Program-made: the position numbers and the translations under genes | DNA from: Amphiscolops sp. MND2022 | Taxonomy: Eukaryota | Assembly: GCA_964187785.1 (NCBI GenBank) | Contig: OZ076409.1 | Coordinates: 5,334,001 to 5,398,000 of the forward strand | Direction of reading: 5' to 3' | DNA length: 64,000 nt | Notes under the pieces: generated by a model | Database searches by the model: none | What the model saw: only the letters and a program-made list of their open reading frames with translations | What the model was told of the DNA's origin: nothing | In this document: positions 3,022-53,767 of the stretch, piece by piece | How the letters are laid out: each line of letters opens with the position of its first letter | Numbering within the stretch: position 1 is the stretch's first letter

Positions 3022-6000
3022 GTAATACCGTCTTCGAACATGTAAAATAACAAATAAGCCAGGAACTGCGTAAGTCGGCGCCATACCTAAGGCTCAACAA
3101 TAGTACAAGGACTTCAAAGTGTCAAGTATTCTCTTCTACAGTACTCGAAAAACCCAAAAGTTGGACCGAACTGGCCAGCTAAAAGGGGCGACCCTTTGGC
3201 ATCTTTCAACATCCATTCTCTCGCAGAACATCAAAAAATTGAAGGCGGGACCCATTGAAAAAACGTCTCACAATGCCGAAAAAAGACTGAAAGGGTGACC
3301 CTTTAGTCTCGCCCGGTATTGTATGTTACGCTGAAAAAAAAAGAAACAACTTTTATATTTCAGTTCCTTGTGCCAAATGGTCCAATTTGACACCTTGAAG
3401 TTTCATAGATCCGTAGTTGGTCCGTTCGTGTGGATTGAAAAAAGTCACTATTATAGTCGCGTTTCGCTTCATGAAGCGCCGAGTAAATATAACATACCTC
3501 CAAACGCCGGCCAGGTGATAAGAAACAATGTTCAAATGTCATAATGTCGACATCGTTTGCGTTGAAAATTTGGTTCAATAAAGTAATTGATGTCGACATA
3601 ATCCTATCTTTTAACCTGACTGCCGATTTGGCTTGCTCCAAGTGTGAACTTTTGTTATTTTGGACTATAATAGCAAACAAAATTCCAAAACAGCTGTAGA
3701 GTCAATCTTCTAAGCATTTACAATCATATAGTATCCTATAAAAAACTCTGCAAACGTTGGGAAGTAATACTCAAAACATATTTGTCAAAGTCTTTGAAAA
3801 AATGCTCATTCTATATATTTCAGGGTTGGCTGTTAATCCGATTAAAAAGCTTCAAATCAGGATTAAGATGATTTTGAAAATCAGCAAGCAGAAAACTGAA
3901 TATTTTTGTGGAATAGGTTCAAAAACTGGATCAGAAAACAAGTTTTTGGAATTGTTAACTTCGAATTGATTTTTAGTTTTCGATTGGAATTAACAAAGTC
4001 TAAAGTAATGAGAGCGAATTCCGATTGTACAGCCTGATTGCTGGGAACGAAATTTACAAAGGGCGTATTCCTAGATCAAGTTACTCATCCACGTCGAGAA
4101 ACTGGCCTAATTTAACTGATTTTAACCAATTATAACTAAAGTAGTTTTAATAAAATTGATTATAACCTGCCAACCCTGATGTATGACTAATGAATGGTCA
4201 GTCACCCACAGGTACCATATATGGAAGTGAGAGTGACTTTGTTGTTAGGGGCGACAACACTTCGTGGGGTAGTTTTCGTGGAAGAAAAGCAGTGTTTGTA
4301 AATCTTCAGTTGAGTTGATTCAAATCTACAAAACCATCGAATTCCATGATATCAAATTCATGAGTTTATTGAATGACACAGTGACCTTTTGACCTTTTGA
4401 CCTTTCCAGAAGCCGTTTCTGACCCCGTCGGCGACGTCACGTGACCCGTTCTACCTGGGCCCGGGAGAGACACAGCTGTTCGCCTCCCTGGTAGCCGATG
4501 TGCACCAGATGCAGCAGCTGAGTGTGAAGATAGCGCACAAGTTCGGCTGGAAAAGATTCGGCATTATGCACTCGATGGGACACCTGCCCTGGGTCAAGAC
4601 TCTCGAAGGTAAGTTCCGGTCACTTTCATAATCTTGCTAGTTGAGTCACCGCTGCTTGTTGATATTACTAATTGAGGCGAGTTTTGGAAATATTTGATTA
4701 GCGGTTCCAACTAGCGCCAATCTATAAAAAGTCTAAATAAGTAAGAAGTTTCACGGAGTTTCAAAGTTTCCACAAAGTGAAGTTTTCCACCTTTTCTCGT
4801 GCAAAAGCTAAATTAAGTCTTCGTTTTATTTTAAAAAGTACTTGAAGGTAATTAGTAAACAGTGTAATGTGACGACAAGCAGTAGCCGTCGCTTTCGTCA
4901 TCTATGAAGATGGAGAAATTCACAGGATGGGTATTTGCCTCTTGAAGTAAAATTTGTCCCGTCAGGAGAGGATTTCGCCTCTAAGGAGTACTTGCCGACC
5001 TATTCGAGTCTGTAATTGCTAGCAGCAACGGGCATCTGGCTTTTGTTCTCTTAAGATCACCGCTTAGATAAGTCATAACAAGACGGGAACGTCTAAAGTC
5101 GGCGCTATATCTAAGGCTCAAAAAGCGCAAACCATTTTTTTGGAGAAATACTTGAAATTTTCGAAAAAAAATTTTCTTTCGGAAAATGTCACACAGTGCC
5201 AAAAAATGTAAAACAGGGGACAGTAGTAAATGTACGTGGCATTATATGTGGGGGGGGGGGTTGAGTGAGTAACCGAATATGGTCATAACACGGACTCCAA
5301 ATGACGTCATGATTGCGACACAATGACGTAACCGAATGCAAAACATTTAGAATAACGTCACCAATCATTACATTTCATTGGTTGACGAAAAAAAACGACT
5401 AACAAAAGTGGAATGGTTTTTGTTAAAAATAACGCAGACTTCAAATAACGTCATGATTGCGACACAATGACATAACCGATTGCAAAAAAAAAACATTTAA
5501 AATGACGTCATCAATCATTACATTTCATTGGTTGACAAAAAAGAGCGACTAACAAAATGGTTTTTTTCCATTGAGCCAAGCAAAAACTGAGTCTAAATAA
5601 AGATAGTTTTCTTGGTGATAAAGTAGTACTTTGCACAAATCCTAATTATCTTGCCTTCTTCCTTCTAGTGGGATCTGTTGGTATCCAGGTTTGAGCCTCA
5701 GCACATCCTCAATATTCTTTCCTAGTATTTGTGCAAGGGCTACTTTTCGGCAAAAAACACTGATGGTTCAAAACGAAAAGTGTAAATTCTCTACATTTGT
5801 GTTTTCGTGAATACTACTTTGAATTTAGAGATTTACGGATATTGAGAATTTGAGCAATGATTCGGACAGTCTTGCAACAGACAGCGGTTATAATTCAATG
5901 GTGTCATTTGACGAAGATGATGATGGTGATGATGGTCTAATGCATCTCAATGTTGAGGTTGTAGAACTGTTTGAACGCTTGTTGTCATGGCTGGATCAGG

Positions 6001-9000
6001 TTCAACAAATTGACGACATTTTGCAAGACTGGATGATTGATGATGAGTAGTTTGTATGATAATGTCGAAAAACCTGGAAAGAATAATATTTTCATGAATT
6101 CTGGCTGAACATGAAAACCAAAATTTTTAAACTCTTTTAACCTTTTTCACGAATCTGACGGATTTTTTCTTTTCCGAGACGCTAATTCAAACTGTTGAGC
6201 AAGCGTTTTTGCAGTCTCTAAGTCTTCCATTGTTAGCAAGGGCTCTCCCGACGAGTCAACCAGGTCAGGAAATAATTCAGCAAACGTGCAAGTTTTGCTT
6301 TGCATTTTCTAAATAAAAGTAAAAAGCTTTACAAACATTCGTGAATTGAATACTCACAGAGGACAAAAGTCAGCTACCATCACTTGTACCTCTAAATCTG
6401 AGGTTGTTGCTTTTGAAACTTTGTCTTCGAGCAGTTCCACTTTTTTCAGCAATTCAAGCTCCTCCATGTTCAAATTATCAGTGTTCTAAAGCAAAATTAA
6501 CCTTGTCCATGTCAGAGACTTTTACAGCAAGAAAAAGCAAAGATTACCTTTAAACTTTGTTCAAGATAGCTACTTGTGGATGGCTTGTTGTTACCATCAG
6601 CTTTATCATCCTCAAAGTATCATGCGACCTTGTTTTTATCATCCTCTATGAACAATTTCTCCAAAAGGTTCCTTTCTGATTCATCAACTTGGTATTCCGC
6701 AGCATCGTCCGGAAACAACACTTTATTTTGTTTGTTACTGTTAGGGGCAGTATTTTTTTGACTAACTGTGCTGTCATCACCAAGAGGTGTGTCTGAAACA
6801 TCATTAATACAAACTCGCAATTGGACTATATTTCACCTCTGGTTGGATTATGTTTAAATGTTTACCTAAACCAATAATTGCTTGTCTCGTCCTCTTCTTC
6901 TCTTTGCGAAAAACAGTAGGAGGAACAGTTGTATTTTTTCGAGTCGGTGGTGTCCATTCATTGTTAGCCATTTCTGAAAAGTTGATGAGCTTTCGTCGAA
7001 ACTGAAAGAAAAAAAACAAATATATTCAAACAAGTTTTTTAGAGAAAAAACTTCAGAGTTACGTTATACATTTATTGGGGATGTTGTAACACCATCAGCA
7101 TGCACAAATAGTTTGTTATAAAAATATGTTATAGACATTTTGTTTTGTTTATATGTGAACATGTTTCCTCGGTAGTAGCGAAATCCCTTGTTAGTTCCTT
7201 CGTAGGGCACTTTGTTGAACAAGACAGATTTAAATCTTTCCAATGGCGACTCTAGATTTTTGTTGCTTCCCTTGAGAGCCATTTTCATCTTTTTGTTGTT
7301 TTCGTTAAATGCACAGTAGGTTTTGCTGTTGAGACAAATCATTTCCGTTCCTTTCCATTCAATTTTGAAAAGTCCAGGTGTTCTTTTATCCATTGCACCG
7401 TGTTCTTTACAGCAGCTTCGTGTTAGAAAATTCAGTTGAGCATTTGGTAGATAGCAATCTTCTTCTTCATGATAATGCTTTGCATTTTCTTGCATTTGTG
7501 TCTTTGCAGCCTCAGTGAAACAATCGAAGAGGTCGTTTTCTGTCAAAGCCATGTAGAAAGAGTCGGTGTCCATCTCTATAGCCCGAAAAGTTCTTGGTCT
7601 CATAATTCTGCCGAGAAAGTCGTAACGAAACTCCAACATTCTTTGTTTTCCATTGTTTAGTACTGTAAAACCAACGAGAATGGGTTCATCGTGCACAATT
7701 TTCCTTTTAGCCATGTTGATTTCGTATATTTTTTCATCCACAATGTCATAGGACCGGAATTTCGGAGAATTGATTTTTTGATCAACTTTTCTTTCATCAA
7801 CAAAAAGCGTGTTTTGAAATTTTGATTTGTTTATGAGTTGGATGCCATATGCGCTGTTTCCAATAAGTTTGGATGTTTCTGCAATCACACTGAGCGACTT
7901 GTCTACATCTCCTCGACGCCTGTTTTCTGTTACAAAATCCAAAAAATCTTTGAAGGGTTGTGCTTTTTTGTAACAAAGAAACTGGTAGCATTTTGCTACA
8001 ACCAAACCATGTTCTAAACACCACTTGATGTAGTCGGTAGATAACATTATCTTTTCTCCAAATTAGCTGGCGACAAGACATTTCCAACCGTTTTTCATCA
8101 AACCGAACTCTTTGGCATAATCTTGCATTTCCGCGGAAAGATGTTGCCTCTCGACAGTTGTATTTTTGAAGATGGGTGGAAGTTCTTTAAAGTGTTCCTT
8201 CAAGTGATCTGGAACGTGGATGTCAATTTCAGCTATTCCATAGACTTTTTCTTTCCAAACTGCATTGAGAAAAGTCTCCAACGTTGAAAACTTTTGTGGT
8301 AGACAATCAAGTTTTCTCACAAACTCTTTTATTTCGGGGTCTGTTTCTTTAAGCTGATTGCATTGACACTCCCATTGCTCAATTACACGATATCCTGCGT
8401 TTAGAATAACTTCCGTACGCTCCTTGTCATTTTCACGTATTTTCGCCGGTGTTTTTCCATGAATTAGAGGCGGCTGAAACACTTAGCAGTTTGAAGCACT
8501 TCAAAAGAAAGTATGATTCATTATTTCAAAACTAAAATTTTGTCAACTAACCAAACTTATACAGTCATGGGCGTGATGATAACATCCCATAAATTCCCAA
8601 ACAGTTTTACAGGACACACAGATAGCATCGGGAACGAGTGTTCTAACTTGGTGGCGCATATTTGTGAAACGAGTGGTCACTGAACAACTTGGGTTTTGGT
8701 CGTGATGATGTTTGGAGATAAAAGCAACATACTGTCGTTCGGCTTGTAAAAATTTACTTTTTTCGGAAACTAGAGCGTTGTCGCTGTTGCAAACGTAATG
8801 AGTCAACGGTCCAGTTGGCATGTTCCCACCAATAGCAGATAAATACAAAGCGTTGGCATCATAACCAACTATTGATTTGACTATTTCATCATTGATGGCA
8901 GTTTCATTAACTTTTTCGTAACGACTAAACACTATACTTGGTCCTCCAAAAATGTTGTTTCGAACACTTTGATACAAATCCTTGTGTTTATAATTGAACA

Positions 9001-12000
9001 AAAAAATTCCTTCGCCTTTGTTTGATCGATGTAAAATTTTGTTGGCGGCGCCACTGAGTGTTAGAGTTTCTTTCAGCAAGTCAATCGAGTGTTGTTCATA
9101 GAAACGGGCCATTTTGGTCACAGCCTTGTGGAGGGGATAAACATCAAGGTTATTGTAATATTGTAAATAATCCATCATTGTTTGAAACCCTTCGTGGTCC
9201 CATGTTTGTTTAATGTCCTCATATACTTCCAACCCTGTCTTTGGTCTACTTGGATCAGTGAGGCTGCCTCCGTTCCGAACAAAACTGTTAATCTCGTTCT
9301 CCAAAACGTTTTCATTCTTTAGTGAGGAAAAGAATGCTTCGTAGGGTGGTAATGAAGTTTCTTGTAAAATTTCAAAACTGGTTAGATGTTCGTAAGGAAA
9401 GAAAAACTTGCTGACTTCACTACCATAGGCTTTCAAAAACTTGTCTAATGATGTACCAGCTGCAACAAAATGACTACAGTCCATGAAGCGCAGGTTTGGT
9501 GTCGAAAGGAGTAGGAAGCGAGTATTTCGTTTAATACACTTGATGGATGACAAGCTAACAAAACGCTGCAGAGACTTTAAAAGGTATGACTTTATCAAGT
9601 TCAAATCGTAGAATCCACTATTGAAACCAACAATTGGTAGCTGGTCAATGTATTGTAAGAACTGTGTTCGTGTTCTTTTCAGGAATCTGTGCAATCTCTG
9701 CTGTGTGCTGGATACAGTAGTAGTAGCGGTAGTGGTTTCGTTTAGAGCAGCTTCTTCATCATCTGAGTGTATGTTCTCTCCCATGGTGGTGTCATCTGGT
9801 TCAAATTCTAATAACATTTCATCAATTTTTTCTAGATAGGGTAAAAATTTTTGTCGCTGGTGAGAGATATTTTTGAGGGACAAGTCCATTAAATAGTCTA
9901 CAAACTTGTCTACCAAAACGTTAGGGTCTTTTTCCACTAACCATTTTGCAGCCGATTCCTCTGTTGTAATGTTTTGATATATTGCAACCGATACGGGAAT
10001 ATGTTGATGAGTAAACTCCAATTTTTTCGTCTTGATGAAACAATCATCTTGGTTGATATCAAATCCATTTGTTTGCTGTTGTGATGATGACTTTTGTCTC
10101 AAAATGGATTCAAAATCAAAAGTAACAAAAGACTTGTAGAATCTATGCTCATGCGGAACACAGACATCAAACACGGTCTCTAGCGTCGTGAAAAAAGTGT
10201 CAGTGGGCGTGTATTTCCCACCTGGATAGGAATGATCTGACTTTTCCGAGCATGACTTTAGATGGCGATTCAATTCAAACAGTCGTGAAAAGTACTGTTC
10301 TCACTTGATGCACTTGAATCGTCGAAAAAATACATTTAAATTTCGGATTAGACAAGTGTGATTATCGACTAGAAGCAGATCAACAAAATTGGATTGCATA
10401 TCCATTTCCAATGTTTTACTTCGGTATAACAATTCACCTTGTACTACATTATTTACATCAAGCTCAGCTGAAAACACTCGGATGGCGCAAGAACAAAACT
10501 TTTCAACGTCTGGCAGGTCCGTCAGCTCGATACCGGCAAAATCTTGAACGTTCTTTTGCACTCCGCGAATGTACTTTTGAAAAAGTTCCATTGTTTTAGA
10601 TTCCAATCCATGCATAGAATTTTGTTGAAAGGCAGCCAAGGCACGAAATACGCAAAGATTATCATTAAACTTTCGTTTCGTAGATCTGCTCTGGGTAAGT
10701 GTCCAAACACTCCTTGCGGACTTGATAAAGTCCGAAATATCTATTACATCTTGATCGGTGCTGCCCATTGGCAGGCGTGACAAGTGTGTGGCATGTAGAG
10801 AGACGTTGGTTAAACAGAAGAAAGTCCATTTTGTGCTGTCGCGAAAGTTTGTAAATTTTTCAATGAAGTCAGTGCTGAAAATGTCTTGTTTTAACAGTTT
10901 GAAGTGTTCAAAGTTTTCTACTAGCTTTGGTTTGGGTAAGACCGTTGTATTGTCACTTGAGTAGTAGTACCGATATTCGCCAGTTTCGTTGTTTGAGAGA
11001 ATGTATCCAAAACTGACATTCATTTTGGATACCCTAGTTATTTTTGCAAAAGCTTCATCGAGTACATTACAAATATTATCAATCCCTTCATCCTTCAAAA
11101 GAAAATTGACAGTTGTTTGGTGGGGTAGCAAAACAATTTGATCCCCCATAATGTGTCTCTTTCTACGAACAAGTTCTTTCAGTGATTCATCATCGCCAAA
11201 TTGGGCATCGTTCAGTTGAGATTTTGGTGATTTTAACATTTCATGTTCGGTATGTGTATGCTGTTGCAACTTGAGCATTGTTGCAAAGGTTGGATCACAG
11301 TAGCCGCATTTGAAGTTTTTCTTTTTCACATGCTTCAGAGATTTATGAGTGTTGAGGTCTTGGCTACTTTTTGCAATGTATTTGCACTGTCCGCAGTGTA
11401 AATCATCCTTGTCGTGGGTCTTTTCATGTCGGTTTCGGTTGTATTTGCGCGAAAACTCTTTTCCACATTTACTACAAACAAAAGTTACAAGGGATTGCTG
11501 AGAAGTTGAAGGAGTTGCTGTTGCGCCGTCAGACGACTGCATCGTAATGAATAGAGAGCAGCAGTAGCAGCAGCACTTGCCGTCGTTCTTTCGGGAGAAA
11601 TTCAATCTAAACAAGTGTCTGTTTGTTACTACAAATTCAAATAATTTTCAAAGTTTTCTGGTAACTCCTGAATTTGCTGTGGCTAAACATCAGACAAACA
11701 AGTTTTGTAACAAAAATAAGCAGTGCAAATATCACATCATGCTTTATGGTTTTGACAATATACAAAACAAGTTGATGCATCTGAATTATGATTTTGAAAA
11801 TGTAAATTGTCCCTACAGTTATTTCAAATTCTTCATTATTCTTTCGGAAAAAGTTGTTTGTATTCATGGAAACTTCCTCATGGAACCTTTGTTATTAGCT
11901 ACCAAACACAATCGTATAAATCGAAGCAAAGAATGTGTCACGAGTCTACTTTGGAGACGGATTGGTCGGAAAAAAAGGAGACGACACTCACCAGCAACAA

Positions 12001-12872
12001 CCAACAGAGGGCCACAACACACTATAGCGTCGCTGATGAATATTGTTCAAATGCAGATTGTTGTCGCGACTCGTCTATTGGAAATTTTGCAACAACATTC
12101 TTCATCTGAAATTTCCACAACCACCACAAATGACATCAGCACAATAACCGAGTAATTTTCCTTTGCAAGCTTACCTTGCAACATCAAATCATTACTTTTG
12201 TTCACTACCTACAGTTCAGTTGTTATTTGCTGATTCAAAAAATTTTGACAAAATAAAAAATTTTCATCATGTCATCAACTGCTGTCATCAACCCTGTTCA
12301 TTGTAAAGTGTTGAAATGTTTTAAAGTTGAAGTTAGTACAAAACGTTACCTTTTAATTACAGTTAAAAGCTATCCGTCTTCTTCAGAAAGCTATACAAGT
12401 ATTCAACTTTTCATTTCAAGTTGGATGAAGAGACCAAGGAATACACACCACAAAAGTATTTGACTCTCAAGTTTCAAGAATTAAACAAAATTCCTTGGGA
12501 CGACGTTTACACCAACGTTGTCAATGTCTTCGACTTTTCACTAGACGTTCGCATGCCCTACCACAAGAATGATATGGACTATTTTGACTTCATCTTTGAT
12601 GTTCAAGACTTTATCTCAAACAAATCGAGAGTCGTCAGAGTAGCTTCCAAGCGTTATCCTCAAGCAACCTACTTGTACTTAAAACTCTTTATTCAACATC
12701 AAAAGCGCTGGAAAATGCAACAAACAATAGACATTTCTTGGATGGAGCTATCTCATTTATTGAGTGTTGTCAAAGAGATTCAGAGCTACCCAAATGGAAT
12801 ACCTAAAGAAGGAAGTCCAATCACAGAGACTGGCTTATTTCGTCCAATCGCAACATTGACTAACCCAGAAAT

Positions 12873-12907
<35 letters not shown>

Positions 12908-15900
12908 TCAGTAGCAATAACCATTAACAAATTTTTTGAGTGCTTCATTACCTCTCTTACTCTTACAGAATTTAGTTGCTTGCTTGCATGATGGCTGATT
13001 TCAACTACATTATTACGTTTGTTTTGGATGTGGAGTTTTTAGAAGTTGACGTAGTTAAAGAAATTAGTGTAACCACACCGTACCACTCCGTATCTTTATC
13101 ATTCAAACCTCCCAGACCATGGAAAGATCTAACCCGTGAAGAACAACTGGAATACAACAACAATAACAACACTCTCAATGTTCCGTGGGATGAAGGCGCT
13201 ATTGACTATAAGGAACTGAGGAACGCTGTATACACCCTCATTCCACCAGGAGTCATGAAGTATGCAAAAGGAGTGCAAAAGTGTGACTTTTTCTCTCGTT
13301 TTTTCCATTTCAAAATTCACAATTTGGAAGACATGGGCTGCCCTGACGCCTCTGCAATCCAATATTTGATAAATAAGAACATTAAGGAGAACAACGACAA
13401 CGACGACGACGACGACAAAGAGAACAGGCCGTTGTGTCCCAATTTTCCCAAATATCCCAATCATTATGAAAAATGTGCAGCCATCAATAGTAAGCTTTAT
13501 CTCAAGTGGTTAGCCAATAAAATTAAAGAAGATCCTGCTGCTGCGGAAATGGCGCGAAAGACTTCCCCGCTGCGCAACGATGCAGCACTCACACTCATGT
13601 AATTATCAACATCATTTGTTAAATTTGCAGCATGACTGATCAGCCGGACCTTGCAGTGCAAGAATTCGTTTTTGATGAGAATAACCAAGAACGCAAGCCT
13701 TGGACACTTTGCGGCAAGCCTATTCCACGGTCCGAAATTGTCTTTTTCAGTCAATTACTTGCCATTCTTATGGTTATCTCATTTTGTATTTTCAAACTTT
13801 CTGTATCATCTTCAAACGATAAAGACAAGCCGGTTTGGATTGCCTTGCTGGCCAGTGCACTGGGATCTATTCTACCCAATCCGACACTGAAATGAACAAG
13901 GTCATTCCCACTGACAACCATGTGTTTATGTCTCTTGTTGGTCCATCCGGCTCTGGAAAGACTACTCCTTTGTATAAACTTTTAACCTTGCCAGTGTTTC
14001 AACCAAGGTACCAATCTGTAATTTTTTTCTATCAACATTATCAAGAAGCGTACGAAAAATTGAAGCGAGATGTTGAAGAAATTGAATTCATACAAGGACT
14101 AGACTTTGATTTGATCAATCAATCATTTACACATGACGGAAAAAAACGCTTGCTAATTTTTGATGACTTTTCAGAGGAACTTTTAAAATCTAAAGATTTC
14201 ACTCGGATTGCTACCGCTGGTAGACACTTGGGCTTGCATGTTTTGTATATTAAGCATAATTTATTTCATAAATCACCCATTGGAAGAGACGTAGAGTTGC
14301 AGTTGACTCATATCGTGCTTTTTCAATCTCCCCGTGACATTAATCAAATTGAACGACTTGGGCAACAGTTGGGCAAGCAAAAATTTTTACCTCTATGCTA
14401 TAAGGATGCCACATCCAAACCTTATGGATTTCTCATGATTGATCTGTCACCCAAAACATTGGATCTTTTACGATTTTGTACAAATTTGGAGCCAACAGTT
14501 TTCTATATACCCAGTGAAAAGGCCCGCATTACAGAGATTGACGATGACTACACAACAAGTTATTACCCTGCAGCATTTCAAGAGTCTTTCACTGGCCGAC
14601 CGGTTGGACATGTTGAAAAGATGTGAGGACAATTTCATTGAGTTTCTGGCCGAATCAGTTGTAAACATTTTGCAAGGTGTAGTGCCCGGAATCAGGCGGA
14701 AAGACATTGAAAAGTTCAAGCCACAAATTGTGCGAATCATTTCGACCAAAGCAACTCTTGCGGAACAGCGGGCCATATTCACTTCCCGAAAGGGGCTCTT
14801 GTTGCTAGATGTTATTATCGAGCATGTTATTCAATACTTTTTAAGTTAGTAGTAATGGAATTGAAAAAATTTGTATTGATACCTTTTTCACAGTACAAGA
14901 GTCAATTGGCATCGAGTAGGCCTGTCAGCACAGTATTGTACGATTCAAAATTGACCAATGAGGAAAAGACTAAAATTTTGCCTACATTGGACAGAAAAAA
15001 AAGGAGAGCTGCTGCTGTTGTAAGCACGCCCACCACCACGGTCACTGCTAGCACCGTACCTGCAAGTAGTAGTAGTAGTACAACAAAGACTATTGATCGT
15101 CAAAAGGAGGCAATTTTGTTGGATGTGGGTGGAAGCGAAACTGCTCAAAGACGTAGCGCTTCGTTGTACGACAAAATTTTGTCTAACCCAAAAATAGAAT
15201 TGACAAGTGAAGGTACAATTAAGCTGGAAAATTCCGACACAGACATTCCTCTCAGCACATTTTTATATAGATTACAGAACCCTTTTCCAAAAAGTAGTCC
15301 AGTAACACGACAGTTTTTGGACATTGTTGAAAATGTGAAAATCTCCGAACACTTGATTGCAAATCAGTCTCTGTTGAAACATCAAAGAAGTAGACAAAAT
15401 AAAGCTCCTCCTCTCGTCGGCTCGGACGACGACGCCGACGATGACGAAGAGGACTTTGAAAGCGTCGACGAAGGTGCAGGTAGCAGCAGCACGGCAACAA
15501 GCAGCAAGGAAAACAAAGAAGGAGGAAGAAAAGAATGGTATTCAGTCAAGGGCGAAAAGAAACAATTTTGAAAAAGACAGAGAAAAAAGATTGTTGGAGA
15601 AAGCTTGGAAGAGTGGTTTCTCAGCATATGGATCGCGTCAGAATTTGCAAAAAGCTACAAAATTGTCCGTGAAAAAAGTTGATGCCTTTTTGCAAGGTAA
15701 AAATTCCTACACAAAATTTTTCATTCCCCAGCGTAGATCCTATCCCCGATTGACGACACTTGCTTTCGACATTAACGACATTTGGTGCATGGACGTTGCT
15801 TACGTCGAAAAAATTGCCATGCCAAATGATGGTGTAAAATTTTTACTAGTCCGTGTAGATGTCTTGTCACGCTACTTGAGATTGGAACCACTGAAGCGAC

Positions 15901-18900
15901 TGACATCTGTTGCTGTGAAAGATGGTCTAGTTGCCACGTTAAATAAATGCCCGACAGTACATCCCAACAAAATTTGGACTGATCAAGGTCGAGAGTTTGA
16001 GGGAGAATTTCGCAAGTTTTGCAAAACTGTAGGAATACGCCAATATAATTCGTTCAGCGGTACAAAAGCAGCGTTTGCTGAGCGAGCCATTAGAGCCTTG
16101 AAGGCCCAAATTGTTCGGTATCTCGAAGAGGAGTGGTTGTGGCGCTATATTGACAAGTTGCCAGACTTTGTAAAAAATTCTCAACGACCGTGTGAATCGA
16201 TCAATTGGTATGGCACCGTCAAAAGTTGAGAAAAAACATGTGCTCAAACTTATCGCACTCAAACAAAGGTCTGCAGTGATGAAAGAAAAAAAGGCCAAGT
16301 ACAAGGTGGGCGACTTTGTACGCATTGCTTCAAAGAATGTACCCTTTAGAAAAGGATATCTGCAACAGTTTACAAATGAAATTTTTTCCATTTCCACAGT
16401 ATTCTCCACTCACCCACCCTCTTACATTTTGCGCGATGAAAAAGGCCAAGAAATTCAGGGCAAATTTTACGAAGCTGAGATTATTAAAGTACTTAAGTGA
16501 AAAAAATACATTTCACAAATCATTTTTCAGCTTTAATCGACAATGAGTGGTTGATTCCACAAACAAAACCCATTAAACAATTATTACCGTGGTCCCGTTA
16601 GACAAAGAGGAAGTGGCATTGGGTCTTTAGCCCTCAAAGTTGCACGTCATGCACTACCACTTTTGTCCAAGTACGTTTTGCCCTCTGCCAAAAGAGTGGG
16701 AAAAGATTTTGCTTTGAATTTGTTGCCCGAAGTATTTGATGTTGTCACTGGTCGTGGTGGTGAACCAGCAACATCTTCAAGCATTAAAAAGGCAGTAAAG
16801 CGTGCAGCGGGAAAAACAGTAAAGAAACAATTGGGCACTGGTGCAGCAAAAAAGAAGAGACGACAACAGTCAGTTGGAAAGCGTTCCAAGACCAAAAACA
16901 GTCGCACAGCAAAAAAGGGCCGCAAAAAAACATCAGGAGGCAAAACAACAACAACGAAAAAGACTCAAAAACGCAAAAAGATTGACATTTTTCAAAACTT
17001 GCCTTGACGGTCAATAACATTCGTAATATTATTCTCAAAACAATGACGACGACGGCGGCGCACATAATACCTAAAGCGGCAACCCACTCTAGTCTGGACA
17101 TTTTTTCTAAGCCAGAAGTGCTTGTGTCTTTTGACAATTCGTTTGAACAAGAAACGTTGCCAGTCACTGCACACGATGCACCAGTTTTTGAGTTTGTACT
17201 CACAACCGATCGAAACATTTACTTGGATTTGCAAAGCGTCGAATTGAAGTTGGAGGCAAAAATTGGAAAGGATGCCAATGGCAATACTAATTTGGAGACG
17301 GAGTTGGCTAGAGGCAACACTGTAGCTAAAGCAACCGACAAAGTCAGCTTCATCAACAACACTCTACACTCCTTCTTTTCCAATTGTGACATTTTAATCA
17401 ACAATGAAATTGTACACACGTCCAACAATTTGTATGCACAGAGAGCTTTTGTTGAAACTGAACTGTCCCACACACAGGGCTGTGCCACAACAAAGCTCAT
17501 TACGCAAGGCTACAACTTTGAGCCCGCCACCGGTGATATGCTTGCCCACCGAGAAACATGGACCTTAGGCTCCGCTTCAAAGACATTTTATGGAAAACTG
17601 GCGGTGGATTTCCTGGCATGTGATCAACTTCTCATTCCCAACTGTTCTATGCGAATTCGACTGACACGGAACAAGCCCGAATACTTGCTGCAAAGTGCTG
17701 TCACCAACCCTGCCTTCACCCCAAAAATTGAACGAGTGTCAATTTTTGCTCGTTACTACACTGTTGCAGAAAACTATCACGTCAATTTACAACGATCTCT
17801 ACTCAAGTGGCCTGCTAGATACAACTATTTTGAAGTACGCAGCAAGACATTTGTGATTCCAAGGGACCAAAGTCATTTCATTCGTGAAGATATTTTCAAT
17901 GCAGAACCCATTAGACGCATGGTACTGGCCATGTGTCCCAACAATCAGTTTACTGGACGTTGGACAGACACTCCGCTCGCATTCCACAAACACAATTTGA
18001 AGAAAGTGCGAGTATTGCGGAATGGTGTACCAGTGGTGGAATATAGCACAAGTTCCAACACTCAACTTTACTTTAAGACTATTCAAAAAATCCATTTCGA
18101 TCAAGACGGTCCCCTAATCAAGTTGGACAATTATGAAAATCACTACTATCTAGTTTTCGACCTTACCTCCACACTACAGTGCAATCAAGAAATTTACTAC
18201 CCCGAAATTGTGGGAGCACGAATACGGATCGAGCTCGAATTTTCGACCAACACTAGCACGCCTTTGGAGCTGTTTGTGCTGGGAGAACGATTTACAACAG
18301 TTCAAATTGATCATACAGGCAAAGTGTTGAAACATGGATAGTGCAGCCTTGCTACAAGTTATTTCCAAAATTCCCGCACTAAAATATCGATACTTGGGTT
18401 GCTTCGACCCCAATACTTTCATTTTCCCAATGCCAATAGACACTTTTCAAATTGTAAACACCACTACAGACGTTGAGGGACATTGGATAACGTTGATCCG
18501 CTTATCCAACGGTTTTCACTATTTTGGAGATTCCCTGAAAGCAACAAGTTTGAATCAATACCCATTGTTGTTTACCCGACTGCCAGAACAGAAGACAACA
18601 ACAACAACAACATTATTTCTACCTTTGAACACTTCAATAAAGCAGGTCGATTCCTTGTGTGGTCTCTATTGTATTTATTTTGCATGGAACTTGTTTGATA
18701 ATACACCTAAAGTGACGAATGATTTTGAATTGTATCAATTGTTTTGTAATCTTTTATAGAAAAAAAATGTTTGTAAAGAAAGTTTTTTTTTCAATCAGTA
18801 ATTGCAGGCACATGTTTTTTGCGAAAATGTAAATTTAAAACTACAAGACCCAAACTGGTAAAGGGAATTAATTTTCCCTTCATATCCCGAATCTCAATCT

Positions 18901-21900
18901 GTATACTATTGAAATTATCCAAACAAACATTTCGATACTGCAAATTGGAAAATGATCGGTTGTCGTAAGGGTATATGACAATCAAATCCTCATTTTTTGT
19001 TCGTTGACGAAATGTGAAGGCACGTAAAAGTTGGTTCTTCAAATTGCCCACGTTACTAAAGTCTACAATATCGCTGTATACAAAAATTGTGTGAAAACGT
19101 GCAATATCACAAGGGTAGGGAGCAATGATTTGGTCGGCCTCACAGTACACAGCATCCGTTCCCAATCCCAAAATTTGAGCCAAGTCATCACTTTGAATTT
19201 TGAAGTATACACGGCTCTGTCCTTCTGTAGTTCCTTCAAACGTGAATGAAAGGTTCAAAGTTTCCTCGTTGTAGGCAAAGAACATTGTCCTCTCCATGTT
19301 TGTAAAAGTAGCAATTTGAGTATTCATTGCGTCAATAATTTGACCAATTTCTGTGTAACAACCCTTTGGAATGTTAAAAGTACGATATTGATTCAAAAAG
19401 GGCACATCTGGATAACTATTTATAAGTTCCTTGCTGACAGTATCAGGTTTGTTTACAACAACACGATATCGTTGAAGAGTCGGTGTAGGAATATAGCCTA
19501 GCGTGAATTCACCGTCGGTGACATTGTATACTCGGTTTGGGAACGAAATGTCTGTCAGTGCAACTTCCCATTCACTACCTCTGCCCAAATTGATTGGATT
19601 TGACATAAAGTTTGAAAAAAATGCCAGAGTATTATTTGGATAAATGTCCAAACTTGCATTAGACAATAGATCAATGTAAAAGGAAGTCATTGTTTTAGGG
19701 AACTGTATAGGAAACACAGAATTTGATTGAATGAGAGTCAATCACTCTTCATTCATCTTCACTGCTGCTGCTGGAGCCAATCATCAGCTTTACCCTCTTT
19801 AGTTTTTTCTTTTTCGGTTGGCGAGAACATTTTTCGTCGTCGACATCCGCCGAAGTTTCTGCGTTGCTATCTGTATTATCGGATATCGACCAATAAGATC
19901 GTAAGGATTCTTCGTATTCTTGTGTTCCCAATTGATTCTCCGTAATGGGCACTAGTGTGTTTTCCAAACGATTGAACTCTCTTCTCAATTCCAGACTCAA
20001 ACAACCTGGATGTGTGCATTCCATTTCTTTCCAGTCATACGTTTCCAACAACATCAAATCAACAGAGTATTGACGGGGCAGTTGCGGCGGACTAGGAGCT
20101 GTCAAGTCAAAAAAACTTTGGTCGTCAGTGTCACTTTCTCCTTGCTCGTCGTCGTCGTCGTCGTCGTTCGATCTGAGCATTTTTTTTGCCGTATCAACTG
20201 TAACTTGAGCACTAATTAAGTGCAATAAATGAACCGGTAGGAGAAAAGACTCAACAATTTTCCATTCATCATTTGTTGCTGAGTTTTTCACTTCCTTTAT
20301 TAGGATTGCCGACGCTCCGAAATGTGTCTTGTAGGCAAATATACGTTCGACGTCATTACGTTGTGTGAATATGTAAATCATTGTTTCCAACAACAACAAA
20401 TTTATTCTGAAAACAAAAAAATGTTAGACTACTGCAAAAAACAATCACTTTGACTGTTGAAGGAGCTTCAGCAGTGACCAGTAGAATGGATGAGAGCTGC
20501 TTTCTTGACGAAGCGTGTTTTTAATTGATGGGAAAAAAGTTTATAAAAATTATACATTCTAATGCAAAATTTTTTTGCAGTGTGGAAAAAGGGCAGAATT
20601 TGCTATGTTACGTTGATCATTGTGAATCTTGTATAGTTGTCGGGTGGTAAACAAGAGCTACTCTAACTGCTATTCTCAGTCAATAAAAATGAAAACAAAA
20701 AAAATTTTTGAAAAAAAATTCAGAACAAAATATTGAGTGAACCCTAGACATGGGCACATCAAATTCGTCTAATTTTTCGTCCCGAATCTAAATTTTGCAT
20801 CAAAACGGCGTTTCTCGTAAAATTGGGGTTTTTCAAAAATTTTGCCCTATGGGGGGATTTTTCCCCTTTCGGAAAATAATTTTTCAAATGGTTATTTTTT
20901 GGTCTTTCCAATGATATATATGACGATGGGTGTTCGTGATAGTCATTGACAAGTGAAATTTCGAGTTTTAAAATTGACAAAAAATGACTGAAACTAAGTT
21001 TTTCCGTGAATCGAAACCATGCATTCATGTTTAAATTTTAATTCCAACCAGAATATGACAAAGATACCTCATTTCAGAATTTTTCATTTTTCTCCATGAT
21101 AAGGGGTTGTTGACGTTACAGTTATAAGTAGAAATTGAATATGTACAAAACTAGATTCATATCCATAAAGTGAGTCTTGAAGAATATTAGTGTTAAATGA
21201 AGAAAACTACAACTTAGCTATTAGTTGTTTTTGGGAGACGCCAATTGGAGAACATCGAGCAAAGTTCGTTCCAAAAACTGCCGAGTGTAGTGAAATTGGT
21301 CAGTCATGTCGACGCCCCTGGTACGCATCTTGTGCACGTTCAAAGATTTGCACTTTTCGAGCTGTTTCTGCAAAACTTTACCGACCCTTTTTTTGTTCGA
21401 ATTGGGAAGAAGTTGATTACGTCTCGCCAGACCAATCACTAGTTTGACACCTTTCGTTTTGCAAACTCTGTTCCATAGCATTAGTTTATCCGTAAGGTCT
21501 TTAGGTGACAGTGTTGAAACACTATTGTTCCCTTAAACACATTGTTTCCCAATCAACTATCATTTTTTATCGCAAGAAAAAAACTCAATTTTGTTGCTAC
21601 GGGGCAACAGGGTTAGGGTTAGGGTTAGGGTTAGGGTTAGGGTTAGGGTTAGGGTCGAAAAAAAAACACAAAAGAGTACAACTAACTTGGTGGCGTTGTG
21701 AGCGAATTGTAGAGAATGTCGGGAAAGATAAAGACGAACTGACACCCTGGTCGAGAAAGGGCTCGGAAAAACAAGGAGTCAAGTGTAGGTTTTGAAAAGT
21801 TTTGTTTAGAAGAGGAGGAGGAGGAGGAGTATTCATGACGACCGCCACTTTCGGCGAGAATTTGGATATGTTTATAATGAGATGAATCCTTAATGATTCT

Positions 21901-24900
21901 ACAAAGATTTGAAGCACCAATAACAATCGCGTGCTTTTTTTCCATAAAACTTGAAAACAGATGATGTGTTATTTCAGAGTCAGAGCAGAATAGTTTTGGT
22001 ACTAGAACAAATCGTGCAAGTACAGACAAAAACAAAAAAAACATGCAAATATTCATATTAGAACTGATTTTTGATACAAAAATACTTATGAGAGTTGTTT
22101 ATGCGTTTTTGGAGGGCCTGGAGGATACCCACATCAAGGGTACCTTTCCTCCAGGCCTCCACACATGCGCGCAGGAGCCCGCGCTCGTGCTTTCTGATCG
22201 CCCAGAAGGCGAACAGATCGAGCACGGGCTCCATCGCCGTCCCATCGATGTAGGATTGGATTCCCTGCAGCAAAAAGGTATTGGTTATTTTAACGAGTGT
22301 TTAACCTGAAGTTTCGAAAACAAAACTTAACGTACCTCGTGACGACAAATCATCAGCAAAGCGTCCCATGTCTCCGTCGATATTTCAGTGAGGCAGGAAC
22401 CTCTACATTTTTTGTTAATTAACCCCCAAGAATAATGATCCAAAAGGTCCAGTTCTTGGAGATTTAACATTTTGTTTAGGAATTGGTCTCAAGAATTGTT
22501 GCTGGTAACTTTTTGTTGCTGGTTGTTAAGTATTGTTGCTGGTGTTTAAATTTCTGAGCAAGGAATGAATTTTCCGTGCTCGTCAGGCTCAACCCACTAA
22601 GCAACTCCTCCGATTTTTTCGAGTTTCACTTTTATCTGGGAAACATCAAAGATTTTAACCCAGGCACATTTTCCATATCTGATCATTTGGAAACTCGGAT
22701 AAACAACCATATTCACTTTTTAGGGCCCATAAGACCTCGATCAAAGGCTCGGCTATCTTTTGAACCTGCTTTCAAAGTGCTGCAGGGTCCACCTTTATTC
22801 CTTTGAAATTCAGAACCCACCAAATTTGAGTTTCCAAGTGATGAATCAAAGAAAAGACCGACACTCTGTTAATTGGCATTGTTTTTTTTTCAGTTATAAT
22901 TAACAAAAAAATGTTGCCTTCACAATTCCAAAACAAATTAGAAGGCATTTTGATTGCTTTTTTTCCAAAAATTTAGCATTTTTTCCCGAAATTTTCATGC
23001 TTTTCTCAGACATTTTAGGTCATTTTGTCTCTTTACAGAATGTGAAAATTCGGTGTAAAAAGAAGCTGGGATGATTTCCATATGCTTGCTGGAATAGTTA
23101 ATGACTGTTTCCATTACGCAAATGAAGGCAATATCAGGGAAATTTGTTCCACAGCAATCACACTTCTAAAGAAAGGTAATATAATCTAAGAGCACATTCA
23201 TTTCAAAGTTGCTAGATTAAAAGAATTTTTATTGATTCCATTTCCTTTCATCCCATCTGCGTTCCATTTCCATTCCTAACAAACCACTCCTTCCATTTTT
23301 ATTACTTTCCAGCACGCCAAGGTAAGGAACTTTCCTTTCATTGCCTGAAATACGAACAAAAAATTATCGGGCCTGTATTTTGTTTTCGGATTTTGTTCGG
23401 CTCTCGGTGATTTTTTTTGTTCGGATATGTCATGTTCGTATCGCAAATATTACGTAACGTTTCAGAAAGTTTTCTTGTCCATATTTGGTTACTCACTCAA
23501 CCCCCCCCCCCCCACCTATAATGCCACGTACATTTACTACTGGGGACCCTTTTTGATTTCCAAACATGCATTCTGTTGCAGAATAACAAAAAACTCAAAG
23601 GGGGGACCCTTTGGGGACATTAAAAAATTTTCGAAAAAAGTCGCACAGTGCCGAAAAAAATCAAAAGGGGGGACCCTTTAGCCTCGGCCGGTTTTGTAGG
23701 TTACGTTAAAAAAGTAAAAAATGAAAGGGGGACCCTTTGCACTAAGTTTGTCTAGGCCCCTTTGCCGGCCTGGGGGCCTTAGGTGGTTTCAGGATTGTTT
23801 TTAAAAAGTGGACCGATCAGTGTGAGGATTGTAGTCTGAAGAAAACAAGACGGGAACGTCTAAAGTCGGCGCTATATCTAAGGCTCAAGAAGCGCAAAAA
23901 AATTTTTTTTTCCAAAAAATTTTTGAATAATTTTTCTTTCAGAAATAGTGGGATAGTGCCGAAAAATGTAAAAGGGGGGACCCTTTGGGCTTCATCAACA
24001 TATATTTTGTTGCAAAATATCAAAAACTCGAAAGGGGGACTCTTTTGATACATTAAAAAAATTTTGAAAAAAAGTCGCACAATGCCGAAAAAAAATGTAA
24101 GGGGGGACCCTTTAGTCTCGTCCGGTTTTGTAAAATAGTCTCGTCCGCTACGGTAAAATAGTAAAATATGAAAGGGGGGACCCTTTTGCACTAATTTCCG
24201 CTGACCGGAATTGGCCTTATGCTAGTAGTTTTAGTAGTTTCGATTGTAAGAAATGTGGCCCAATCAGAGTGAGACTGTAGTCTGACGAAAAAAAAAGAAA
24301 AAAAGAAAACTAGCCACTGTAAGAGTCGGGCACTTTTCTCTAGAAAAGCGCCGACTAAAAACGGGGGTGGTGGTGTCAACGATAAATTTTCTATTAAATC
24401 GCAGGCAAAGTAACAATTAGTAGTTCACGAGCTAAGACATCATGAAAATACGATAACTTACGGCATTATTGACTTTGCAAAACTTATTGACTTATTGCAC
24501 GAAAAAGAAAAAGGACACAAGCACCGTATGCTTATTTAAGCAAAAAGATTCATTTAGGCAATTGCAACAATTAGTAGCATTATGCTAAAGAATGCGCAAG
24601 TTTCAGTTTTGTTCTGTCTTGGCGAAATTAGCACTCAGCTAATTGATTTTTTTTTCGAACGAACCTGGCGTTATTTCGGTCTGCTTTTCGGATTCTCGGT
24701 CGTTGCAATTATGATTTCGTCTTTTGCAATTCTCGGGAAAGATCTTCGAGTTGACGCGGACATCACTTGCGGCATTCGATTGAAAATTCTAGTTATTTGA
24801 GTTTCTTCTAATTTTTCAGACATGTCACCAAATGTTGCAAACGTTGATGGTAGATGTCGATTTGATAAGGGAACTTGACATAACGATTTCAGTGAAATAG

Positions 24901-36900: not shown

Positions 36901-39900
36901 ACTGGCGCGCTTATGACTGGGGCGCTTTTGTCTAAGGCGCTTTTGTTTGGGGCGCTTTTGTCTGGTAACCAGACGCTTTCATTGAAAATGTTTATTCGAC
37001 ACTGCCCTGAGTAAACCTTGGTTGATTTAAAATCCTTTCTTTGCAGAGGTCATGCAAGAATTTCGTAGGAATTTTGCATTCTACAATCGTTTCCTAACGA
37101 GATTTTTTAGAATTTTGCATTCTCAACAAAAATACAGCTAAAGTTTCACATAGGATTTTTCGTGCAGCATTTCGAAGAAAAACAATTACCCAGGTCAAAT
37201 AGAGTCATATATACGGAAACTTGCTATTTTATACATTAGAGATGATAAACACCTTTTTTCAATATTTTCTGAAAATCTCGGCGTTAAATACAACTCCCTT
37301 CACAAGATTTAAAAAATGTTCCAGGTTTGGTTCTCGAGGGCGAGCAATCGAAGAGCACTGGTGCTCCTTCCTAGTCAATTTGGATTCGCTGATTTTCAAT
37401 AAAGTGGAGGTTTTATAGTATAACATATTACATAGATTCATGTACATACTGTTCTATTTCTTGGTTAGATAAGAAAACAATATAGTCTTTTGTTAAAAGT
37501 ATCTTTAAACTCAAAAGCAAAGTCAAATCGATCTTCTTTCTATACTGATCTGTATCACAAATGATGTATCTTTAATATGAAAGATTTAGCACTATGTTTA
37601 CAAATATATATATAAACTTTTGTTCTATGAATGTCTAAAGGGAAGATCTAAGTTTGATTGACATTTGTCATCCGAAAGATTCGGTTCGGTATTACACCGT
37701 ATAACATTTCCTCCCTTCTGGGCTCTCTTCGTTTACTGGTTCGATGGTCATGGAGTCGGTGTTTTTTCCCGGGTGAAATCTGCTGGTTTGGTCAACGGTT
37801 TCGGTGGCTCTTTTTGGATGTTCCATCTCTCACCTGTAACCATTTTGTTTAAAAATTCACACCCAGAAATTTTTTGTATATGTAACCCCCCGTATCTATT
37901 CGGTTGTCTACTTTCACGGTTTGACCGTCTTGTTCCTTCGTTTTCGGTTGTATTGTTTTTAAGTTTTTTCTCACCGGTATCTATTTCACCGTCGGTATGT
38001 AGATTGAGTTCATCCTCGGGGGATGTTGTCACTGGTCGGTTGCAGCTGTTTTTCTCGGAGGTATCGATTCTCGAAATCCCTCTCGTCATCCTCTATTTCC
38101 CCTCTTCACTTTCCGAGTCTGATTCGGTTCTTTGGTTTGGAACGATTTTCAACTTTCCGTTGAGTACGTCACGCAGTACCTCGTTCCATTGTATATTTTT
38201 ACCGTCGACTCCTCTGGGGCAATGGCAATTTTTGGGGGTGATGTTGTCTCCGATTTTCGGGGCGGCCTTCCTTTCTTTCTGAAATACAATTGGACCCGAA
38301 ATAAATTTTCGGTGGATAATTTTTTCGGTGTCGGTGGTTACGGTATGTTCCGTACCATTCACTGCGTTTTGTAATTTTTTCTGAAATCTACCTTCCAATG
38401 ATTTTTTGTTATGGTTCTTTTCAAAGAATTGGAAAGGGTATATACCAACCGAATTTTTCTTCTTCGGAGATTTTTGCGGCTAATGCTTTTTTGTTCACTC
38501 TTGGTCCGGGCCATTACTATGTGATTTGACACTTCTCCATCACCATTTCTGGTTATACAGATGGGGATCTTCGGTTTATCACTTGCTAAAACAGGTAATT
38601 CCGACCAATTAGAAAGGAATGATCTTCCGTTTTTTATCACGTTCGTTAGTTCCGTTCTTGGTTTCCGACCGTAGTGTAGTTCGAATGGCGTGATTTTTAT
38701 CCCCGTGTGTATTGTGAAACGCATCACCTTCAATGCTCTATTTACGCATTCGGTTAGGCATATGTTTTCTTCTAGGTTGGTTTCATTAAATACTTCAATG
38801 TTTGTATTGCGCGTTCTACTGCTCCCGTACCGGTATGGATTCTCGGTGTGCTATATTCAATTTCTATATATTTTGATTCACAACATTCTTTGTACTCTTT
38901 CGAGTGGAACGCCCGCCTTTATCCGTTTTTATTTTCTCCGGCAATCTGTATAAGTTAAACTTCTCTTTTAGAAAATTTAGGACTTCTTTGGTTTCCGCTG
39001 TTTCACAGATTTTTGCGGTCGGCCATTTGCTATATCTGTCTACCGCAATTAGGATCCGATATTCTCTGTTTAGTTTTTCGTTATTTAGTTTCTGGAAAAA
39101 TCAATTTGATTTTCTTGTCCCGGTTCCGTTAGTGTTTTTGATTTTCCGAAATTCCGTTTCGGTATTTGGTATTTTAAATTCTTACCGTATGCCATGCAGG
39201 CCACACAGTTTTTTGCTTTCTCTTCGATCTCCTTTTGCATGTTTGGCCACCAAAAGATGTTGGCTTCCGCTGCCGCTTTCCTTCTCAATTCATTTGGCAC
39301 AATTATTCGGTCATCATTGAATGTTAGTCTCCACTTGTTGCTCAATTTTTCAAATGTTGTTCGGTATGCTTCCGGGGCAGTATTTTTCTCATTTCTTCTC
39401 ATTGCACTACTGACTCTATTCAGTTCTGCGTCGGTTGCTGATTTGGCTATCAGCGTTTTTAGGTCGAGCATGAAGTTGATTTCGGCCTTTTTGATTGTTT
39501 CTTCGGTTACTTTTTTGTTCCCGGTAACTTTGTCGATCACTTGATTGATCTCTATGAATTGGGCTTCTTTTCCTTCTGTGTTGAATGCCTTCAGATCAAC
39601 GATGGGAAAATTGTTGCCCCTGATTATCTGGCTTTCGCCCTCACTTTCTACTTCGGCTTTTTCGATTATCTCCGGTTGTTGTGGTTCTTGATCCTCCTCT
39701 TCTGCTTGTTCTTCTAATGGTTGATAGCCTCCTCCAAATCTGTTGGCCCGTGTTAATAGTTCGCCGTCTGTTTCCGCAATCTCCTCCCTGCTTCTTTTGT
39801 TTGGCCTTGAGGGGACCCATATTTGTCTTTGGGCATTCATGTCGAACTTTCTTCTCATGGTTCCGGGTCGGGAAATTTCCAGACGTCTCTCTACCAATCT

Positions 39901-53178: not shown

Positions 53179-53767
53179 GGTGGTGTGATCGGGTGATCAA
53201 CTAAATTTGGTTCTTTTGTACAAATTTGGAACTTTTGGTGATTTCTTGAATAAAGTTTAACTTTCAAAGATACTTGTTTCTAGATCGGTTCGCAAAGAAG
53301 TGAGGCGTGGTAACGTTTACATCCGGAGATGAGGAAGTTCGGTCATTTCAATATTTGAACCAAACATTTGTTCATTTGCGATTATATCGAGTAGTTTGTT
53401 TCAACTCTTGAAGTTCCTGCTTTCTTTTAAACAGTCTGTTTATTTGTTTGAGTCTTCTACTTTAGTTTCACAAGTGAGTACACATGTTTGAGCAGTTTTC
53501 GAGTTTTTCAGAGTCTGTGTGTTGTCTTAAGACAAATTTAAAGCTAATCTAAAAAGGAAGTCAAGTTGTCTAAGCTAAAATCTACAGTCAAAGTCTTCTA
53601 AAGTCTACAGTCAAAAGATGTGTGACATCGTGTCCTTCTTGAAGTTCGTTTTGTTGTGTTGCCCTGGAAGGACTTACATAAAAGAAGGAGATCGTATGAT
53701 CTCTTTTAAACGAGAAAGGGACAGCAGGTGCCCTCCTCTCATTATGCAGTCGGAGTCAAAAGTTGAC

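Follow-up and report, generated by a model that had tools for sequence, protein, structure and literature searches.

The window considered here, the 64,000 nt from 5,334,001 to 5,398,000 of Amphiscolops sp. MND2022 contig OZ076409.1 (assembly GCA_964187785.1; positions below count from its first letter), contains a decayed copy of a Polinton/Maverick element (5222..23541, 18,320 bp). On the minus strand of its right arm, inside the inverted repeats and 1.6-2.3 kb from the right end, lies a small gene (21221..21945), already assigned to a Polinton in the sequence-only reading, whose product looks, and probably works, like an SGNH hydrolase. The evidence, drawn from sequence and its relatives, gives indirect support for treating the two open reading frames (ORFs) at this position as one gene of the Polinton, split by a conserved intron.

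The ORF coordinates from which that reading started (21682-22056 and 21221-21481) are correct, and the two frames can be joined as it proposed. From ATG 21945, a first coding part (P0001, 21687..21945, minus strand; 86 codons plus 1 nt) and a second (P0002, 21221..21531, minus strand; 102 open codons, then a stop) give 189 codons in all once a 155-nt segment between them is removed. The phase-1 geometry proposed for this segment (21532..21686, minus strand) also holds: it opens with GTTAGT and ends with TTTAAG, and taking it out keeps the frame open. With its GT..AG ends and the single open frame left on removal, it resembles a spliceosomal (U2) intron, and among 56 listed frame-keeping GT/AG pairs the one at 21686/21532 gives the longest product (189), the runner-up being 21682/21522 (187). 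The predicted protein is very basic (pI 10.1; 31 Lys/Arg vs 13 Asp/Glu). Within the putative intron lies a telomere-type hexamer array of 7.8 copies (21609..21655), which is common to other copies of the gene, two records (P0034 and P0036) reading into it. On the sense strand this array repeats CTAAC, a branch-point-like word, just before a second possible acceptor at 21597.

A phmmer search with the second half as query, against 1.84 billion representatives, gave six matches, four of them real; P0006 and P0007, with their cluster mate P0011, were dropped as repeat proteins. P0008 and P0010 (a cluster mate of P0005), both found through the second half, independently match the first as well, P0008 at 41% over 78 aa (pairwise E 6e-15) and P0010 at 36% over 76 aa (pairwise E 2e-12). 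Each has an insert rich in F, L, S, and K, of 30 residues in P0008 and 35 in P0010, after the same motif that marks the break point in the window. Judging from the proteins, the position of the break is kept in P0008, P0010, and P0005, and the inserts vary in sequence as well as length. With the frame shifted by one base, the residues following the insert can encode the start of the second part (8, 10, and 10/12 for P0008, P0010, and P0005, respectively), something seen in 0/269, 0/200, and 0/114 other stretches and in 1, 0, and 0 of 500 shuffled targets; because of this codon test, the second part of these relatives is placed as starting at the 21532 acceptor. As far as its residues indicate, the insert of P0008 begins and ends with codons that fit a canonical donor and a YAG acceptor.

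The gene is multicopy: an alignment search with cluster look-ups (ENA records, long contigs) gave 57 close records of the first part, 48 of which end at the same place, and nine of the second. One record, P0067, continues across these acceptor letters in a different frame. Some copies are rearranged: in P0039 and P0064 the beginning of the first part is fused to a stretch that the window has roughly 1 kb farther upstream (22775-22972, minus strand). In a marine run (X1), a contig of a related copy spans the second part plus the last 35 nt of the intron at a depth of 12.2, the contigs over the integrase, capsid, and minor capsid standing at 11, 12.1, and 12.3 (contig depth being a rough guide); its contigs have no joint at the intron and cover little of the first part, which, with 0.06 of the words present in X1, proves nothing.

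Other searches for relatives gave little. Word searches returned no longer relatives of either half; viral contigs queried with P0002, the capsid, and a degenerate junction motif gave no match, and neither did metagenome contigs searched with two alignments (A3 and A5). Phage tblastn returned just three matches, at chance level (E 6-7). Another alignment (A6), run against 201 bacterial genomes, found six weak matches, four with internal stops. Matches to ribosomal eL33 (E 0.02-0.07) were rejected, as they rest largely on columns of intron read-through.

On the fold, the outcome for the sequence-only reading is divided: motif order, motif spacing, and language-model neighbors speak for its SGNH-like call, and profile and structure searches give it no support. 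On balance an SGNH fold has a strong probability. Ser12, Gly34, Asn80, Asp164, and His167 (in the 189-residue count) stand in the SGNH order of S, G, N, and DxxH. The first part has a strand followed by G-A-S (Ser12), then S-G-G-R (Gly34), a serine run, and D-I-L-Y-N-S (Asn80); the second has a helix-strand-helix-strand pattern, D-Q-F-H (Asp164/His167), and a last helix. A motif pattern with spacings taken from Table 2 of PMC10792757 is passed by 0 of 20,000 shuffles, 0 of 345 ORF slices from the window, and 7 of 15 bacterial GDSL domains; because the pattern was written after the protein had been seen, the true chance rate is higher than 0/20,000.

The individual blocks are largely kept among the relatives. 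In block I both Gly and Ser are present, the Ser in 55 of the 57 close records. Block II, its S-G-G-R lying 22 residues past the Ser, keeps its Gly in all 57 and in P0008 and P0010. Asn80 of block III is found in 48 of the 49 close records that reach that far, and in P0008. Block V (D-Q-F-H) appears as DxxH in seven of nine close records, while among distant ones P0004 retains D and H, and P0005 E and H. For every one of the five positions, the 40%-identical subfamily has one member or more that retains the residue (P0008, P0004). Uncharacterized invertebrate proteins may have similar motifs as well.

A language-model search of the Atlas with the second half gave a first match at 0.93, where 14-16% of members bear GDSL families (recognition 2807), and all ten of the best family-bearing matches fall in one family or clan. 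The two halves folded together scored 0.46, against 0.01 for the best control; this is graded weak: 51 of 78 solved pairs and 2 of 108 mismatched ones reach the mark, and scores of 0.60 or below include only 5 of the 78 solved pairs but all 4 passing mismatches. The runs agree in at least 76% of contacts, with a partner pLDDT of at least 62, although the halves of a split gene can pass through likeness to solved folds.

A number of results weigh against this reading. As to the split gene, the proposed acceptor is AAG, and it competes with a pyrimidine-rich TAG at 21597..21599 (minus strand), use of which would end the frame about 14 codons later, before the DxxH block. The matching codons of P0005 and P0010 are incompatible with GT..AG. 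All five distant records appear decayed. Homologues with both halves contiguous, whose absence the sequence-only reading listed among its refuting conditions, did not turn up: none of the 71 family records (57, 9, and 5) is contiguous or intronless.

As to the fold, an Ala precedes the block I Ser, where SGNH hydrolases have D, N, Q, S, or T behind the first strand; Ala is seen in that place in none of the 30 rows of Table 2 of PMC10792757. Block III, expected behind the third strand, lacks G-x-N-D; this block is variable among solved SGNH members (PMC10792757). Conservation among the close copies says little, because they are about 90% alike. The Atlas match shares 132 of 256 features (true family matches mostly share at least 170), 4-10 of 100 shuffled proteins also reach 0.9, and the first half has no usable match there. 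Pfam, PHROGs, NCBIfam, and the PDB sequences contain no match for the gene product. Profile comparison and Foldseek, the checks suggested at the outset, were no more favorable. With hhalign, comparison with 15 and with 33 bacterial GDSL domains gave probabilities of 0.8 and 1.3, the first at a score (16.4) within the noise of block shuffles (mean 16.0, maximum 21.6); a global run aligned three columns and was set aside as uninformative. Foldseek was blank, on AlphaFold models too poor to use (pLDDT 36 and 47.5), and a local HMM score was equaled by 35 of 1000 shuffles, a marginal result.

The nearest SGNH/GDSL layout among known systems is that of the ORF1 esterase of the non-LTR retrotransposon ZfL2-1 (PDB 4C1B), likewise a basic protein of a mobile element (PMC3905857, PMC10792757). 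The S, G, N, DxxH order is the same in both, and the S-G (22) and N-H (87) spacings are identical, while the G-N spacing is 46 in the Polinton gene and 30 in ZfL2-1 (PMC10792757, Table 2). Unlike the esterase, the Polinton gene has G-A-S rather than G-D-S, lacks a G-T-N-D block, contains an intron, and belongs to a DNA element; the likeness is one of layout, and no alignment score supports homology. The ZfL2-1 protein binds acidic phospholipids and not oligo-A RNA (PMC3905857).

Enzymes that might act on membranes are also known from the broad virus group to which Polintons belong. PLA2X occurs in Alpha adintoviruses (PMC8502044), a phospholipase in group 2 Mavericks and Gosseviruses (10.64898/2026.06.19.733378), and an alpha/beta-hydrolase in PgVV-14T particles (10.1101/2022.07.28.501842); a further source for PLA2 or alpha/beta-hydrolase lipases in related viruses is 10.64898/2026.10.13.758929. 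Their folds differ from that of the SGNH-like gene, and none of 19 window proteins scanned has a PLA2 or alpha/beta-hydrolase Pfam match. For wastewater virophages there is a single mention of an SGNH hydrolase (PMC13768754). In the part of the open literature that was covered, no SGNH gene was found described for an animal Polinton; term searches of PMC11071308, PMC11131425, and 10.1101/2024.03.25.586562 gave no SGNH passage, and one supplement of PMC8502044 no match. Polinton-like viruses with lipases, other mobile elements with SGNH genes, and Mavericks with spliced cargo are all already known.

The explanation we favor, with a probability of roughly 0.55, is a spliced, membrane-acting accessory esterase of SGNH fold belonging to the Polinton. 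It would be an accessory gene of two exons in the right arm of a Polinton family with many copies, and the host spliceosome very probably excises the 155-nt intron, to judge by its ends and the shared break point. The product would be a small, very basic SGNH-fold serine hydrolase in which, going by the motifs, Ser12 would be the nucleophile, Gly34 and probably Asn80 would form the oxyanion hole, and Asp164-His167 would be acid and base; on the same grounds esterase activity is a reasonable expectation. Being basic and without a clear signal peptide, it would most likely bind acidic membranes, approaching them from the cell interior or from a particle that is uncoating, and would cleave acyl esters of lipids, as might be expected from the retrotransposon esterase of the same fold. 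Membrane passage during spread would be the likeliest single use, with cargo acting on the host cell close behind. A membrane or entry role nevertheless stays doubtful, being argued by analogy.

Several alternatives deserve consideration. The first concerns the 5′ end. The domain might form the C-terminal end of a larger protein with more spliced exons, or have a spliced 5′ leader, with 22470-22058 supplying upstream exons. We regard this as a tentative possibility; it would alter the gene model and not the fold, and is compatible with the favored explanation. ATG 21945 may not be the true gene start, and there may be a spliced leader or extra N-terminal exons. The 23 of 24 upstream-reaching sister records that diverge two codons before this ATG are compatible with a canonical acceptor there, and none of the poly(A)-type or TATA-type hexamers looked for occurs in the 113 nt from the upstream stop to the ATG. 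Directly upstream is an in-frame stretch (21946..22056, minus strand) with two ATGs and a hydrophobic run, for which an intron or leader is likelier than a signal peptide; a signal peptide starting from 22056 was considered and rejected, since copies change frame within the stretch. Beyond it lies a conserved, spliced-looking unit (22058..22470, minus strand; 113 open codons), either a separate gene or 5′ exons, made up of part A (22470-22336), a 71-nt GTACGT..TGCAG segment (22335-22265), and part B (22264-22058). Part A has a conserved counterpart in P0076, a record that continues straight through these sites; the unit as a whole has no Pfam match. Against a continuous model, part B has its own stop after the 113 open codons, and in-frame donors are easily found by chance.

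Other spliced-looking features occur in the arms. In the left arm, 5900-6971 (minus strand) resembles a multi-exon gene with three GT..AG segments of 49-73 nt (6865-6793, 6547-6486, and 6357-6309); an open frame of 92 codons spans the first join, and the four-exon model stops after 92 codons. Pyrimidine-rich acceptor-like sites, as for spliced leaders or trans-splicing, lie at 6974, 19703, 20407, and about 21950 (minus strand), just before start codons. Of 14 starts, 5 have an acceptor-like site within 30 nt, where the background is 0.12; the pattern was chosen post hoc, so that this is a lead only.

As a second possibility, the gene may well encode a spliced SGNH esterase and yet be plain cargo from the host or another mobile element, with no part in the particle or in entry, acting instead in the host cell by deacylation or deacetylation of lipid, glycan, or protein. 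We consider this unlikely, though there is a fair amount to be said for it. Nematode Mavericks carry intron-bearing cargo (wasp proteases, KRMA kinases) beside intronless core genes (10.1101/2022.07.12.499685), sharing with the present case a spliced gene in an accessory arm, intronless core genes nearby, and multiple copies; the enzyme family is different, and no host source or horizontal transfer is shown for the Polinton gene. Intact vertebrate Mavericks are reported to be intronless (PMC8097293). The gene also lies in the arm next to other spliced-looking units, and its motif spacing matches a retrotransposon esterase. Apart from non-LTR elements, SGNH or GDSL genes occur in Terminons and LTR elements (PMC6431247), a casposon (PMC4779613), and, as known from a reference title in PMC7599744, a Helitron. 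On the other hand, no host or retroelement homologue turned up in profile-free or alignment searches, the many copies and the 40%-identical subfamily suggest long residence, and lipases are a recurring class in Polinton-related viruses.

Third, the motifs may be a chance likeness in some other alpha/beta protein, or the gene a dead copy in which the 155-nt segment is an insertion or is spliced to 21597. The blank profile and fold searches would suit this, as would the broken polymerase and integrase of the element and the presence of a telomere-type array and a rival acceptor within the segment. It is made improbable by a break point common to relatives of 40% identity, in which the inserts vary in sequence and length, by two parts that are both open in the window copy, and by the agreement of two separate lines of evidence, the motif order and the Atlas neighbors.

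That some adintovirus records name an "Oskar" gene was not confirmed by the literature search. The OSK-like RNA-binding fold offered in the sequence-only reading, i.e., an inactive SGNH fold like the OSK domain of Oskar (PDB 5A4A), fits a product that is very basic, with odd blocks I and III, and (if the assignment is right) of SGNH-like fold, but it is very improbable: an enzyme is likelier than an RNA binder because in OSK an Asp stands in place of the Ser and the Asp/His pair is missing (PMC10792757), positions that this gene and its relatives keep, Ser, Gly, Asn, Asp, and His each in one or both of P0008 and P0004, and the basic ZfL2-1 esterase binds lipids rather than oligo-A RNA (PMC3905857).

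The element itself has the hallmarks by which Mavericks are defined, namely (AGT)2//(ACT)2 termini on its inverted repeats and a target duplication of 6 bp (PMC8097293). It runs from AGTAGT to ACTACT between GGGGAC duplications at 5216..5221 and 23542..23547 (plus strand), with well-matched terminal repeat cores at 5222..5284 (plus strand; a weaker match continues to about 120 nt) and 23477..23541 (minus strand). Inside are matches above cut-off to Pfam DNA_pol_B_2, rve, and Pox_A32: a protein-primed DNA polymerase with N-terminal zinc fingers (7064..11647, minus strand) in four open-frame pieces, an integrase (15378..16500, plus strand; rve, E 4e-11) in two overlapping frames, and an A32-like packaging ATPase (13823..14626, plus strand; Pox_A32, E 8.6e-10). 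The broken polymerase and integrase mark the copy as decayed. Going by size, order, and motifs, we take 16986-18341 (plus) to be the major capsid gene, 18331-18759 (plus) the protease, and 18791-19741 (minus) the minor capsid; the presumed capsid and protease ORFs have no Pfam or PDB match. Two small ORFs, 14439-14849 and 16555-17007 (plus), are reminiscent of the gasdermin-like and cupiennin-like genes of Beta adintovirus modules, and have no Pfam match.

Directly behind the left terminal repeat, 5285-5565 holds a two-copy tandem repeat of 144-150 nt with TGACGTCA and CCAAT words, a possible promoter. The insertion site (5077-5221 and 23542-24185) belongs to a dispersed repeat family that has GGGGGACCCTTT cores and is found repeatedly along the window. 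Elsewhere in the window, 42992-43446 is an inverted repeat with perfectly matching 225-nt arms and a spacer of 5 nt; 163 nt of the repeat have a further match at 37450-37612, the opposite end of a decayed retroelement. The segment 49373-62962 is an LTR retroelement-like stretch with 300-nt direct repeats 97% identical. The latter contains what we presume to be gag/pol-like ORFs and an env-like region (50901-53196).

For Polintons generally, the split gene indicates that annotation by ORFs alone misses spliced accessory genes; the database already holds dozens of unnamed half-proteins of this family. If the gene is merely cargo, it is one more SGNH gene riding in mobile elements. More speculatively, and at rather long odds, a spliced, divergent SGNH lipase could be a third independently recruited membrane-penetration enzyme, beside PLA2 and the alpha/beta-hydrolases, in arms whose genes are host-spliced and perhaps share leaders; if so, a retrotransposon-type esterase would be tied to particle entry in an animal Polinton. 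As a small, soluble candidate enzyme with a named nucleophile, the product would be cheap to assay, and it bears on the means by which animal Polintons get across membranes and on whether particles are formed by them at all.

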